From: Yuukianura sp. NJ FZ-2021
Lineage: Eukaryota
NCBI GenBank assembly: GCA_046563655.1
Contig: CM102286.1
Coordinates: forward strand, 13,392,001 to 13,456,000
Length of the DNA stretch: 64,000 bases
Direction: 5' to 3'
Made by a program: the position numbers and the translations under genes. Position 1 is the first letter of the stretch. Each line of letters starts with the position of its first letter. Below are positions 20,961-27,800 of this stretch, one piece after another. Under the pieces are notes generated by a model. The model was not told where the DNA came from. It saw nothing but the letters and a program-made list of their open reading frames with translations, and did not search any database.

Positions 20961-21824
20961 AATTTCATTTAATTTAAAATAAATTAAGTTTACATAAAGT
21001 TTAAATTAACATTGTTGTAAATTTCTCAATTTTTTTTAATTGAAAGTTTAATCAGGGCTGAAACTAAACGTATTTTAGCCATAATTTGTCGTAAGATTTG
21101 TCGTAAGACTGGATAGGAACAAAACCTAAAAGGTATACTATTTAATTCAATTAACTTTTTAATTAATCATTAACTAATTAACTAATTGAAGTTTGCAACC
21201 CATTCTAGCAACTAAATTTGAAAAAAAAAGAATTGACTAAGGCCCCTCCTCCAACAACTTCTAGTTTTAGAATTTTTAAATTGAGAACCCAAATCCCGCC
21301 ATTTTGAATTCTCTGCACCAATGGGATTGCGGCGGGAGAATTTTAAAATTTTCGAACAGTTACAATATATCGCTGTTCATTTTTTGTTCTTCAAAGTTTC
21401 AACAAAACGGCCTTACCAAAAGGCCGTGTTAGGCATCCAAGTGAAACTTTTACGTCTAAAATTACATATTGATCAGCCCAAACAATTAATTGATGAGCTT
21501 GAGTTAATTAAAGTTAAAGTTAAACATTTCCTTGATTTCTTTGATATCAAAAAACACCTTAAAAGTTATGTAAGGTACACATTTTTGGATCAATCGTGGG
21601 CATGAGCATGGGCCCTACACAAATTTCACAATTTATAAGACTATTTCCTAATTTTACGTTTAATCGTTTCTTTAAACAACAAGAATTTTAACAACATTTT
21701 AAAATTATGATTTTAAAAACTGAGTTTCTGAATTCCACACATTTAAAACTCCAATCAGGAACTCCGGTTGAGTCCGCTTGAATTCGATTGGTCAAATTTC
21801 TACCGAATCAAATTCAACGATTAG

Positions 21825-24800
21825 TCAGGGTGGTTTAAGTTCCAGAGCCCTCAGGGTAGCAACTTTCTCACTCAAAATGTCTTTCTCTTTCAAAAGTTCC
21901 CGCAATTGTTCTTTTAGTTGCCGCTCAGAACTCTTCCATAACTGGATAATCTCTTGTTTTGTTAGATGACTCAAGTTGGACGATGAACTTGAGCATTTCA
22001 TCAATGGATCTTCGTCTGTGAGGTCATCGTCGCCTCTCCGGTGACTTTTGATCCCTTCGTCCAATTTGAATTCGACATGTTGTTCTGGACATTTTTTGCC
22101 AAGGCGCTTCAAGCGTTTCCGCCTCTCCGTGGTATCGGTCTGACTGGCTTCATCTTCCGCTTCTGTTTCTGACTCTTCTTCGACTTCCATGATGGTGGAG
22201 GGTGTATGGTGATGAGATGCTGTTGCCATGACAGTGGGCAATGGCAGTTCACTTCCAGCGACGTCAACGTCCACTCCGAGGATTCGGACTACTTTGGGTG
22301 TCTGTTTATTACTCTCGAGACGTGCTTGGATTGAGTAAATTGGGGCTGGAGAGGATGAGGCTGGAGACGTCGAAAACCGCGTTTCAGTCGAGTCTTGATG
22401 TTGTAAACTCTGCTGTCGTTCGTGTTTTTGGACACTGCAATAAAACATACAAAATGGATTCAAGCATTTTTGGTTGCCATTTGGCCAAAGTTGAAGAGTT
22501 TCCAAACCATTCCGGAGAAAATTTCAAAATTTCCAAAACATTTCTGAGAAAAGTTCCCAATTTCCAAAGCATTTGTGAGAAAGTTTCAAAATTTTCCAAA
22601 GCATTTCTTAGAAAATGTCAAAATTTTGAAATTTTGAAACAGAATGTGCACTTACCGTCGAATTTCTTGAATCATTTCAAAAAATTGGGCTTTACTTTTT
22701 CGTCTTCGGCGCTGTTCACGTTCCTTCTAGGAGAAAAGAAAGTTAGTTAACTAACACAAACTGTCTTAGAGAAAAGCATCTTCCTAACAAAGTTTAAAAG
22801 TGTGAAGGGCATGCGCAGAGCGCTATTTTTGTGAACTATGATGTATAGTCTACAAGCGATTCAATCAACACGACACTTTTGATTACCCTCTTGACACTTT
22901 TCTGGAAGAGACTTGTAATTTGACCTTGTCTGAGCGTGTTGACGAGTTCCTTGGCAGCATGATGCGGTGACACCAGCTCCACGCAGTTGATGAATCGATA
23001 TAATTTCTGTTCAAATAACACAGTTGGATGAACATAATTTTGAGTATGGTTCACAACATTATCATTATCATCATCATCAACCATTCTGAAAGGCTAGACT
23101 CTCACTCTTTGTTCTTTTGTCTTTTTATAACCCTGGAAATGCATGTACAGAAGTGTACAGAAATGTACAGAAAGTGTACAAAAAGTGCTCCCTGGACACA
23201 CAATGAGATGAAGGCGTTGTGAAGTTAATCCTGCTCTGTGTCCACATACACAATTAGTGTCTACCAGGGAAAACTAAACTTTGTAGTTTTCTCCCTCAAC
23301 GGAGCAAAGTTTCACAAAACTTTCTTTTCAGACGCACTCAGGCGGAACATCAAACTGACGACCATTTTGTTTCCAAATTTACACAAAAAGTTTAATTGTG
23401 CGCCACCCAAAAGTGGAGAAAACAAAATCAACTTGCTTTGTTTTCTCGACACTTTCTTCGTTTTCACTATTTCACCCCACTGATCCGTTTCAAAATTTTC
23501 GCCCAGAAAAACTATTAAATCGAATACAAGTTTTTGAAAGTCATACTTTGAAATTTAGAACACGCTGTTTGAAATAAATAATTTTGAAATTTAGCTGTTG
23601 GAAAACGGATAATAGAGAAAAGTGTTTGTTTTTTTGTTTTTAAATTGGCAGAATGACGCCGCGCTATAAAATTTCTTTTCGAAAAATTTAACAACGGTTT
23701 TTGTGGAAGTTGCGTTCTGTTTTTTCGAAAAATTTTGGTTTTTTTAAATGTTTTCCTGAAATTCATACTGGGGCTTCGTTCTTCGTTGTATTTGTATTGA
23801 TCTTCTTTTTTTTTCGTTTTAGAATTTTGATTTTAGAAATTAAAACCTAAAGAGATGAGATTTTGAAAGTTGGTTGGTCACGTAATCTTTGACCTACTTT
23901 GCAATTTGGAAATATGAGTTACACTAAAACTAACCTGTGAGAAAAACATAATATTTGGTGATCTCCAAATGGTTCCTTTTGGTTGTTTTCTAAAATATGG
24001 AAGAGCTATTTTGTAGACGAGGAGTTCCATGCTCAGAATTAAAATTCCCACGAGAGTTCCTACGCCCAGCATTATGATCATCCCAGCCACGGAGTCTATG
24101 CCCAGAGCCTGTATTAAATTTTAAACAAAACAGGGTTAGAGTTTTGGGGAAATTGCTACTCCTAAACGTCCAATTCTCAACGAGATTATTATTCTGCTCG
24201 TCATTTTCAAAACAATAATTTTCAAAATTACGAAAATTATGAAACTCACCCGAGCTCTAATGAGGTCAGAGGAACTTCGTCTAAAACACTCCAACTGCCC
24301 GTACCACTTGCCTTGCAAGTAGTCTAAATAGCCGTTCCCAATGTACTTACTAATTAAACTTGAAATGCTATCCTGCAATTCAAAAAAAAGAGTTAAAAAA
24401 TACAAATTCTTGTATAAATTTTAACAATTTTTTATCTTATTAGCTTTCAGTATGCCATCAAAATATTTGCCAACAGAAATACGTTGTGGTTGCATAACTT
24501 TTAATAATTTTACAAACTTCAAAAACTGAAAAAAAATTGTTTGTCTCTGGCTTTTCAGTTTCAAAACTTTAACTTTGAGCGGAAATGCATTTCTCATTGC
24601 CACAGCATAAGTGTCATCTAAAATTCAAAAAAAAAGTGGGAAAAAAATACCTTTGAAAATTCTTGTATAAATTTAAAATTTTATCAATTTTTTGTTAGAT
24701 TTTAGTTTGCTATCAAAATCAAAAGGAGGATGATATGGCTGCACAACTTGTAATAATTTTACAAACATCAAAAACTGAATTTTTTTTTTTTTTGTGGCTT

Positions 24801-27800
24801 TTTAGTTTAAAAATGTTTACTTTGAGCGGAAATCCTTTTGTCATTGCCACAGCATACGTGTCATCTCCAATCTTGTCTTGATTACTAACGTCAATTAAGT
24901 TACAATGTGAATCTGAGCCACGGTAGTAGTCCAGAAGCGGTCCATCTCCAATAAGTAGATCCAAACTATTGTTTCTGTAAAGCAAAAAGTCAAAATCAAG
25001 CAAAAAGTCAAAATCACACACAAAAAAGCAAAGAATCAACCAAGAAAAGTTAAAACAAAATTGAGTTTTCTGAGTTCCCAAAACCCCAGTGCCAATTTAC
25101 TCTAACAATTCAATCAGAAAGAAAACGAAATTAAATAAACCCAACCTCGTCAACCTAATTTAACTTAAGCCTAACAAACCTAATGTATCCTTACGTAGTA
25201 TAGCCTAACAAACCTAACATAACAGAATCCTTGCCAAGATTAACAAGAGTACTAAATTCCGCTACAGGACACTCCAGCATTCAAGTGGAACCACAGAGCG
25301 TGTCTCTTGAATAGCCTAACGTAACATAGCCTATGTTTTAGTCTTGTCCTCCTTTTAGTCTTTTTAGTCTTTCCTTTAGGCTATGAAACTGTCTTAATTC
25401 CACTTGGGAAGGCCCTGTAGTGAAAGTGTCCCATTTGATTTGATTCTTTTACTTTCTCCTTTACCTAAAAAGTCATTTGAACATGGAAGTGAAAGGAGTG
25501 AAAGTAATAACCATTTATTTTATCACCAGAAAAGATGCTTCTATGGCAAATTCTTTTTTGGCGGGAACCCCTAACAAAGTTTCGGCTTTTGTATAGTTAG
25601 TCAGAACGGAAGAGAGAAAAGAGCGTTGTAGATCACGGTCTTACAAGCCCACTTTACTTTCTCTCATGACACCGAACATGGAAGGGACGCTGAAAACCAA
25701 GGTTCCTTGACAACTGAATTGTATTTCCTACAACAGGTTGTCCTATAACTCGGAGTTCTCAAAAAATCTTGCATCAAACAACTTTCAGCACCTATAATTT
25801 TGTTTATACATTTTCCCAATTTTTTTTTCAAACTTTGAACACTTCAAATCTCATAGAAATAAAAATAAAAGTGGAAAAAAATTCAAAAAAAAATGTTATA
25901 GAAATGGAGGTAAAGTTTAACCCGTTTGGTTTTTGAAAATTTCGGGAACAAATTGAATAACCCAAGTTATTGGACAACCTGGTGTAGAAAAAACATTTTC
26001 TTTACGAACCTTGCTGTAAACGGTAGACAGGCTGAGAACCAGAAAAATTGTTGAGGTTGGAATTCCTGCGTGGTCGCTTTTTTAACTCAAACGAGTGGCA
26101 CGCGGAGGACTTTCTCTTTTTGTGCCTTGGAAATCTTATATTTCTTCATCATTTTCAGAAATTGCAGTGACTTTGAGACGCAGAGGGGCCGTAGGGAATC
26201 AAATGTTCCTAAATGGCCAAACTCCGCGTTTATGCTATGCCTTGGTCTTACTATAGACTTTACTTATCACGGAAGACAATCTCCTGGATACGAAAGCATT
26301 CCCAGGAGATCGACCTCGTCCAATTTGTAATTTAAGACAAATCTCACTCTAATGTCTCAGGAAAAAAGAACACGCACGGGGAAAGTTTTTTTTTCCGACA
26401 TTGTTTTCTCGACGGCGTTCAAAACTAAAAGAACACTCAAAGAGTTACGATCGAATCCAATTCAAACGAAATTTCTTTCTTTTTTTCTTTTGAAAAGGTT
26501 TAGTTGTGTTCGGTAATCGAATCCGTTAAACAAAATGGAGTTTATAAAGGAAAGAATGTCAACAGAAAATGAAAAACCAGAGAAATGAAGCAGAAATTCA
26601 AAAAACGTAAATCGGTTTAGAACGCTTTTGGTAAAAACGAACTTGTGGTAGGCACAGACGCAACTTCTATGCTGTCTTTTTGTTTTGAAATTTTGAGTTT
26701 TATTTTGTGCTTGTGTTATGAGCGTGCAGCGATGCATGCGTAGAATAGTATGAACTGAGGACGGCAGGATTTAGGAAAATAAAGCTGTGTGCGTCACCGT
26801 GTCATCTCGGATGTCGAATTTATTTATAGCCCATGTTTCTGTCAAATTTTGAAAAAAAAATTGCGCATGGGTCACAAAAGTTCAAAAAAGACACGAGTTT
26901 TCCTTTTCTGTTGGCATTGAAAGCTCAGTTTATGTTTTCACTTGAACGGAGAAAGTGGACTGTCACCTCTCTGTTTTTTTTTCCATTTCAAGGTTTTTGT
27001 AAGATGTTGGACCATTTTCGAAAAAAAATCGGCGCGACGGACTGGAAGAAAGCGAAACGAAAAGTTTGGAAGTTTGTGAAGCAAAAGCTGTTGCAAATGA
27101 TAATGTTCAAGTGAGAGTCATGCCTGTGGAGCCATGTGGAAAGACGAGGTCAACCTGAGGTCAAACACTTTCTTTTTCCAAGTTGACACAAAGTGCTCTA
27201 AAGGATGACTTATAACAATTGTAAAAAGAAAGGAGCGCCATTTTCATAATTCGATTGCATCCTGCGTTTACCGCCGTTTGCTTCACTTTTCAAACAACAA
27301 GTGCATAATTTTGTTCAATTTACTCAAGACTTGGTGTAGAAAAATATACTTTCCATAAGGTTAAAAGAAAGCATTCCTGAACCTCAAAATTTTCTAAAAA
27401 TGTTGTCAAATTGAAATTGGAAACTAGAAACCTTGGCATTGGAGAAAAAGTGGATAAAATTTAACACATTTGGAATTTCGTTTTAAATTTTATTTTTTCA
27501 AATTACAACCAGAAAACTGCGAAAGGTTGTTGGACGAAGCCGAAAATTTGAAATTTCAAAACAAATTTGTTCAATATTTCTGGACAAATTGAAAATTCCG
27601 TTTTCATCACTTTTTTTTTGGAGGGAAACGGAAGCTTCGTTAGTAACTTGATCAACGTAATGAAAAGAGAAGATGACTTCATCTTTTTTGGAAACTAATT
27701 TAGTGAAACTGGAACATCGACATGTTTAAAAACCTGGGCACGCGGCAAGTACAAATAGGGCAAATGGGAGGTTATAATCCTCCATGGGTTGACATTGATA

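Follow-up and report, generated by a model that had tools for sequence, protein, structure and literature searches.

A conserved UGA-CUA stop codon followed by a ten-codon extension suggests programmed readthrough in a GluN3-like receptor gene of Yuukianura sp.

Does a glutamate-receptor subunit always end where its first stop codon says it ends, or do some ribosomes continue to the next stop in the same frame? The question is raised by a gene of Yuukianura sp. NJ FZ-2021, found on the minus strand of a 64,000-nt stretch of contig CM102286.1 (assembly GCA_046563655.1, positions 13,392,001 to 13,456,000), referred to here as the window and numbered from its first letter. The coding sequence ends ...GAA CTT AAA CCA CCC, TGA, and the frame then continues CTA ATC GTT GAA TTT GAT TCG GTA GAA ATT, TGA CCA ATC.... 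An earlier note on this DNA had given the same minus-strand sequence, which agrees letter for letter, and had proposed a recoding switch at the first UGA. Comparison with relatives upholds part of that proposal, as the UGA-CUA context and the frame of ten codons are conserved, but not the long hairpin as a conserved signal, nor a double readthrough. From the pattern of sequence conservation described below, programmed UGA readthrough of this glutamate-receptor gene appears the probable explanation (about 0.7).

Conservation of the ten-codon extension

Three DNA sequences were compared, namely the window and the contigs L001 and L002, both of which come from one metagenome. All three carry Pro-Pro-TGA-CTA, exactly ten codons and then TGA, and the stop is never replaced by a sense codon (stop-to-stop sequences, each with two Pro codons before: TGACTAATCGTTGAATTTGATTCGGTAGAAATTTGA in the window, TGACTAATTGTTGAGTTTGATTCGGTTGAAATATGA in L002 and TGACTAATCGTTGAATTTGACGAGGTCAAGCTCTGA in L001). 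Orthologues with UGA-CUA and a frame-preserved ten-codon extension had been suggested as a check on the proposal, and both relatives (2/2) have these features. The leaky context, UGA with C at +4, is likewise present in 3/3 sequences, and such a context is enriched among the readthrough genes of insects, as described in PMC5100048 and the preprint PMC13278127.

The extensions of the window and L002 differ at 4 of 30 nt, all of them third positions and all synonymous, and the encoded peptides are identical (10/10); when four random substitutions were simulated, the peptide stayed unchanged in 0.29% of 200,000 trials (p about 0.003). The L001 extension, LIVEFDEVKL, shares 7/10 residues with the window (S>E, E>K and I>L) and 7/10 with L002. 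Over the last exon, amino-acid identity is 67% between the window and L002 (123/184), 46% between the window and L001 (84/181) and 50% between L001 and L002 (87/173), while four-fold sites within identical residues differ at 37/50, 22/31 and 22/36 positions, respectively, so neutral sequence between these lineages is randomised (saturated). No indel lies between the two stops, and the protein alignment is gapped just upstream. In the 90 nt past the second TGA, the sequences compared without gaps agree at 27% (window-L002), 21% (window-L001) and 31% (L001-L002) of positions, and in the first 60 nt no pair gives a significant local alignment against 2000 shuffles (p = 0.37, 0.28 and 0.11 in the same order).

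An open frame of ten codons is, taken alone, unremarkable; the remaining two frames are shut within four codons after the stop (GAC TAA; ACT AAT CGT TGA; read in the window, L001 and L002). Despite the saturated neutral sites, however, the substitution pattern in the extension is coding-like. Because the ten codons look protein-like in two distant relatives, some copies of the receptor probably carry the extra tail, and in the account given by PMC5100048 functional readthrough in flies and mosquitoes is called from this kind of signature, a leaky stop that is kept and, after it, coding-like sequence reaching exactly to the next stop in frame.

The earlier note had further suggested that a second readthrough could add 28 more sense codons. 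This finds no support, as similarity stops at the second stop, and three of the four listed differences of a divergent haplotype in that stretch (see below) are non-synonymous.

Relatives and how they were found

A search of longer proteins gave one match, the uncharacterised protein P0001 of the springtail Allacma fusca, which is the sole named relative of the last exon; an all-against-all HMMER search with that exon returned five proteins, and further protein searches added none. P0005, one of the HMMER matches, is a repeat protein and was set aside as unrelated. The tails of P0002, P0004 and P0006 end ...KPP and that of P0001 ends ...QPP. The remaining protein, P0003 (L001 421-1158), reads ...ERPP-W-LIVEFDEVKL-W-.... 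Its two W residues stand for TGA codons that a gene caller of the prokaryotic type had translated as Trp on a metagenome contig of eukaryotic origin, and it was through this gene-calling artefact that the conserved extension came to light. P0003 originates from a metagenome of the Joint Genome Institute (JGI), and a scan of that collection retrieved its contig L001 and the closer relative L002, which also bears the S2, M4 and next exons of the same receptor gene.

Lys, Arg or Gln followed by Pro-Pro ends 7/7 known tails at the same place (the window, L001 1045-1050, L002 3565-3570, P0001, P0002, P0004 and P0006); the third positions of the Pro codons vary, so the conservation lies in the amino acids. 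A degenerate sequence pattern had 0 matches in a scan of viral contigs. Among genome contigs a single match was found (L003 601-623, from a metagenome-assembled genome of the bacterial order Aggregatilineales), which was rejected as a chance match since stops lie upstream and there is no homology.

The receptor gene and its stop codon

The minus-strand exons of the window match Lig_chan, Lig_chan-Glu_bd and ANF_receptor in a Pfam search. The best match of the M1-M2 exon among solved structures is GluN3A (3.8e-10, vs about 2e-4 for GluN2A/B), which is in line with the earlier assignment to an NMDAR3-like subunit, although 'GluN3-like' is to be read as a best-hit statement, since two other receptor exons had no PDB match in the structure-database search. 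Exons were chained in frame by tblastn with P0001 and by splice sites (24108-23935, 23006-22887, 22726-22656 and 22434-21825), and the stop at 21827 is therefore the receptor gene's own. The last exon holds a conserved motif, PIYSIQARLESNKQTPK, with a coiled-coil-like stretch at its C-terminal side. The coordinates of the features are collected in Table 1.

Table 1. Features of the 3' part of the receptor gene and of the region after its first stop codon, in window coordinates.
Feature	Position	Strand	Remarks
M4 transmembrane exon	23935..24108	-	End ...NIMFFSQ, donor gttagt; tblastn with P0001
Exon KLYRFINCVELVSPHHAAKELVNTLRQGQITSLFQKSVKR	22887..23006	-	91% identity to Allacma (alignment with 5 flanking residues)
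Penultimate exon KEREQRRRRKSKAQFFEMIQEIR + CG	22656..22726	-	Donor gtaagt
Last coding exon	21828..22434	-	T of split Arg codon + 202 codons, VQKHERQQ...ALELKPP; tblastn with P0001, relatives P0002-P0004 and P0006
Pro-Pro codons before stop	21828..21833	-	Third positions vary: CCA CCC / CCT CCT / CCA CCA
First stop, UGA	21825..21827	-	TGA in window, L001 and L002; same in divergent haplotype of run X4
Candidate ten-codon readthrough extension, CTA...ATT	21795..21824	-	LIVEFDSVEI; CUA after stop in 3/3; tail end S-V-E-I
Second in-frame stop, UGA	21792..21794	-	30-nt spacing kept in 3/3; would set free C-terminus of extended form
Hairpin	21776..21819	-	5' arm in extension codons 2-8; loop 21801-21793 (9 nt); 3' arm starts with A of second UGA
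Small second hairpin, GGACUC / GAGUUC(C)	21758..21775	-	Not conserved; haplotype variant C21759G breaks closing pair
Hypothetical second extension	21705..21791	-	28 sense codons to TAA (21707-21705); reads as 3' untranslated region

Hairpins after the stop codon

A hairpin shortly after the stop was taken by the earlier note as the stimulator of readthrough. Its geometry is as described there, with a stem in which 21817-21802 pairs with 21792-21778 (15 bp, one U-G pair, C21805 bulged), and RNAfold adds 2-3 outer pairs; the small second hairpin also appears in the 81-nt fold. In the window the long hairpin has a minimum free energy of -14.2 kcal/mol (z = -3.16; 3/200 shuffles fold equally well), a value reached by 1.0% of 9137 46-nt windows of the minus strand and by 0.33% of 2417 GC-matched ones. 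The hairpin and the UGA-CUA context are each unusual, with the limit that both were chosen post hoc.

A stem conserved with compensatory changes, which would be expected of a shared signal in the earlier proposal, was not recovered. The same 46-nt span folds no better than shuffles in L001 (-11.8 kcal/mol, z -0.61) and L002 (-6.1 kcal/mol, z -0.81), the RNAalifold consensus has only -2.28 kcal/mol and 11 pairs, with a two-sided change in 1/11 and no convincing compensatory change, and 160-nt folds give a different structure in each of the three species. L002 encodes the identical peptide, yet just the apical 7 stem pairs are kept. The long hairpin would be a species-specific booster at most. 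A resemblance of the 3' arms of the window and L001, noticed by eye (TCGAATTC vs TCGGATTC), had p = 0.275 in an unbiased local alignment and was dropped.

A divergent contig in the same sample

Sequencing runs were also compared (five DNA runs from two studies, where the listed contigs of run X5 leave 21786-21879 uncovered). Between 21400 and 22500 of the window, a contig of run X4 (record 12, same sample) departs from the window by 26 letters and 13 gap letters within 1.1 kb, and stems from a second haplotype or else from a very close relative present in that sample. It keeps UGA-CUA. Its last Pro codon is changed synonymously (CCC>CCA), and so is one codon of the extension (TCG>TCA, the one change listed there), which breaks the stem pair G21804-C21790. 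Among the differences listed, ten in the last exon are synonymous and four non-synonymous, and three of four in the hypothetical second extension are non-synonymous; these counts are small and possibly incomplete, there being seven more differences beyond those listed.

Proposed mechanism

If the gene is read through as proposed, the majority of ribosomes would terminate at UGA 21827-21825 and produce a subunit ending ...KPP. A fraction would decode the UGA by a near-cognate tRNA, with Trp, Arg or Cys expected at this position, and would translate ten further codons before halting at the second UGA, giving ...KPP-X-LIVEFDSVEI. The signal would be the leaky context itself, that is, UGA, C at +4 and CUA, possibly together with the preceding Pro-Pro and the conserved bases that follow. 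Pro-Pro ahead of a stop slows termination, and for this reason the two prolines may contribute to the signal.

Alternatives to readthrough

Several observations weigh against readthrough with a tail of the proposed kind, and some of them favour other explanations. The DNA comparison rests on three sequences, two of them from a single metagenome, and the tally of variable columns (6 third, 3 first and 1 second position) is coding-like but not decisive alone. The hairpin taken as stimulator is not conserved and is strong in this species only. Third positions vary less in the extension (4/10, window-L002) than in the exon, where 61-71% differ (61% for window-L002), and CTA, GTT and TTT are the same codons in 3/3 sequences. 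Conservation therefore acts partly on the RNA, and the bases just after the stop are probably under constraint at the RNA level too, for which a role as linear context is the simplest account. The same facts would fit ordinary termination, in which case the conserved 33 nt would be a non-coding element of the 3' untranslated region that just resembles codons, bound by a protein, for example, or supplying the 5' half of an RNA structure; in the window the stretch does supply the 5' arm of a hairpin of unusual stability. However, the four differences between the window and L002 all fall on synonymous third positions, and the simulation left the peptide unchanged in only 0.29% of trials; the edges of the block coincide with two in-frame stops spaced 30 nt, and the block is free of indels while its flanks contain them or are unalignable; and L002 has not retained the 3' arm on which a structure would depend. 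We consider a purely non-coding element unlikely.

The tail could also be translated after removal of the stop from the mRNA, by adenosine-to-inosine editing of UGA to UGG (Trp) or in an undetected splice form. Glutamate-receptor mRNAs are classic targets of editing, and conservation of the UGA ahead of a coding-like tail is as compatible with editing as with readthrough, but no duplex partner within 1 kb on either side beats shuffled queries in the three sequences (best energies -15.8, -20.9 and -15.1 kcal/mol vs shuffled means of -16.3, -19.0 and -17.2). Moreover, the A to be edited (21825) comes after a G, the 5' neighbour least favoured by ADAR, and in the window there is no AG acceptor between the stop and the conserved codons that a splice form could use; we consider removal of the stop an improbable source of the tail. 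Least probable is a selenocysteine codon. The UGA is kept in 3/3 sequences, as it would be in that case, but a second UGA ten codons on serves as terminator, and Rfam searches (E up to 5) detected no selenocysteine insertion sequence (SECIS) element either in 2.2 kb around and downstream of the stop in the window (six weak unrelated matches) or in the whole of L001 and L002 (three weak unrelated matches).

The C-terminal motif of the extended form

Given readthrough, what might the tail do? The extended C-termini, each directly before the kept stop, are SVEI in the window, SVEI in L002 and EVKL in L001, with V at -2 and I or L at 0 kept in 3/3 and with positions -1 and -3 varying. The Ser at -3 occupies what we take to be the position of Ser880 in GluA2. 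Besides PICK1, GRIP is a PDZ partner of the GluA2 C-terminus. Class II PDZ ligands have the form hydrophobic-X-hydrophobic-COOH, and the SVKI end of GluA2, a PICK1 ligand, belongs to this class according to PMC5818740. The GluA2-like pattern that the earlier note saw in the tail is thereby recognisable in 3/3 sequences as a class II V-x-I/L C-terminus, and we tentatively predict that this new C-terminus is a class II PDZ ligand which could tether a subset of the receptors to a scaffold, a reading to which we give somewhat less than even odds.

Two points speak against this function. The invariant part of the tail is LIVEFD, rather than the final four residues, and a hydrophobic end with a hydrophobic residue at -2 is, by rough estimate, not rare by chance in short peptides. 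An extension made by readthrough might then have another role, such as a trafficking or endoplasmic reticulum-export signal, a degron or a coiled-coil cap, for which the upstream location of the invariant residues and the variation at -1 and -3 can be cited. On the other hand, V at -2, I/L at 0 and the exact position of the free C-terminus are kept, and the codons of the invariant LIVEFD overlap with the bases under constraint at the RNA level; a role other than PDZ binding is possible but less likely than not.

A broader and more speculative version of the readthrough proposal joins these elements into a compact cassette, some 45 nt long (Lys/Arg-Pro-Pro, UGA-CUA, ten codons, UGA), which would have persisted from early in springtail evolution. 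As a translational switch, the cassette would give a tunable fraction of the GluN3-like subunits a GluA2-style class II PDZ ligand, with Pro-Pro as part of the signal and Ser/Glu at -3 as the counterpart of Ser880. Judged from sequence, this full version is conceivable, although we would not expect all of its parts to hold.

Other features of the gene

Two further observations concern the receptor gene. In the last intron (about 22440-22620, minus strand), ORF-like (open reading frame-like) copies of a ...FLRN.LE..F... motif repeat in two frames, which suggests a tandem or dispersed repeat inside this intron. The 3' end of the S2 exon, together with the start of its intron, is present in a second, partial copy (24556-24624 vs 24812-24976, minus strand; ILDDTYAVAMRNAFPLK/VKV vs IGDDTYAVAMTKGFPLK/VNI), and an in-frame stop precedes the copy. 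It was not seen in the translated interval of L002; a tandem duplication at this locus might account for it, or an alternative exon that is no longer functional.

Significance

If the tail is made, one mRNA would give rise to two receptor forms that differ just in a putative scaffold-binding end, a type of control that vertebrate receptors attain comparably via separate subunits and phosphorylation. It would also mean that ten-codon extensions, which tend to escape genome-wide screens, can be functional, and that gene models of this receptor should include a readthrough isoform. Conserved readthrough would, if the proposal is true, extend down to the base of the hexapods, and if the cassette reading is true as well, this would be the first ionotropic glutamate receptor with synaptic anchoring set by recoding.

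Comparison with known readthrough systems

Readthrough is abundant across Pancrustacea, including insects and Daphnia (PMC5100048; PMC13278127), and the present case adds to what is already known of it. A search of the open-access literature yielded no description of readthrough in Collembola or in any ionotropic glutamate receptor, NMDA-type ones included, with the supplementary candidate lists for Drosophila and Anopheles outside the scope of the search. The conserved readthrough genes of Drosophila and Anopheles (Jungreis et al.; PMC5100048), as they are outlined there, offer the closest parallel, in that a conserved TGA-C is followed by sequence that is coding-like up to the next in-frame stop, in a neural gene. 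They differ in host, which is springtail-like here, and in depth, since the evidence here consists of three sequences rather than a formal PhyloCSF score. The ten codons also place the extension at the lower limit of the genome-wide k-mer test described in the same source, which was applied to regions of at least 10 codons.

Similarities extend to the mammalian UGA-CUAG genes OPRK1, OPRL1, AQP4 and MAPK10 (Loughran 2014, quoted in PMC5100048; PMC4999894), which share UGA-CUA, short extensions (14-29 residues in the mammalian genes) and membrane receptors or channels as the proteins extended. However, the next base is A in the present gene (CUAA) and G in theirs. PDZ motifs have been predicted by pattern in readthrough extensions, for example those of OPRK1, OPRL1, AQP4 and SYTL2 (PMC4999894); the mammalian motifs given there were matched by pattern to classes 1 and 3, and none of them concerns a glutamate receptor, whereas the motif predicted here is of class II. 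Peroxisomal-signal readthrough (MDH1, LDHB and fungal PGK1/GAPDH; PMC4999894) is established and resembles the present case in its very short extension (7-19 residues in the examples given), its short linear motif at the C-terminus and the two destinations served by one mRNA, but the motif there is the peroxisomal targeting signal PTS1, and here it is a hydrophobic-x-hydrophobic end.

With alphaviruses (Firth 2011, PMC3159437) and Drosophila hdc (quoted in PMC5100048), the window shares UGA, C at +4 and a stable stem 5-8 nt downstream, the stem being a feature of the window only. The alphavirus element is conserved at synonymous sites in the account of PMC3159437, unlike the stem described here, which is not kept in relatives. 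Finally, SVEI, SVEI and EVKL resemble the SVKI end of GluA2 (PMC5818740) in having V at -2 and an aliphatic final residue. In GluA2, as presented in that source, the ligand is constitutively encoded, whereas in the gene described here the predicted ligand would appear only after recoding, and on an NMDA-type subunit.

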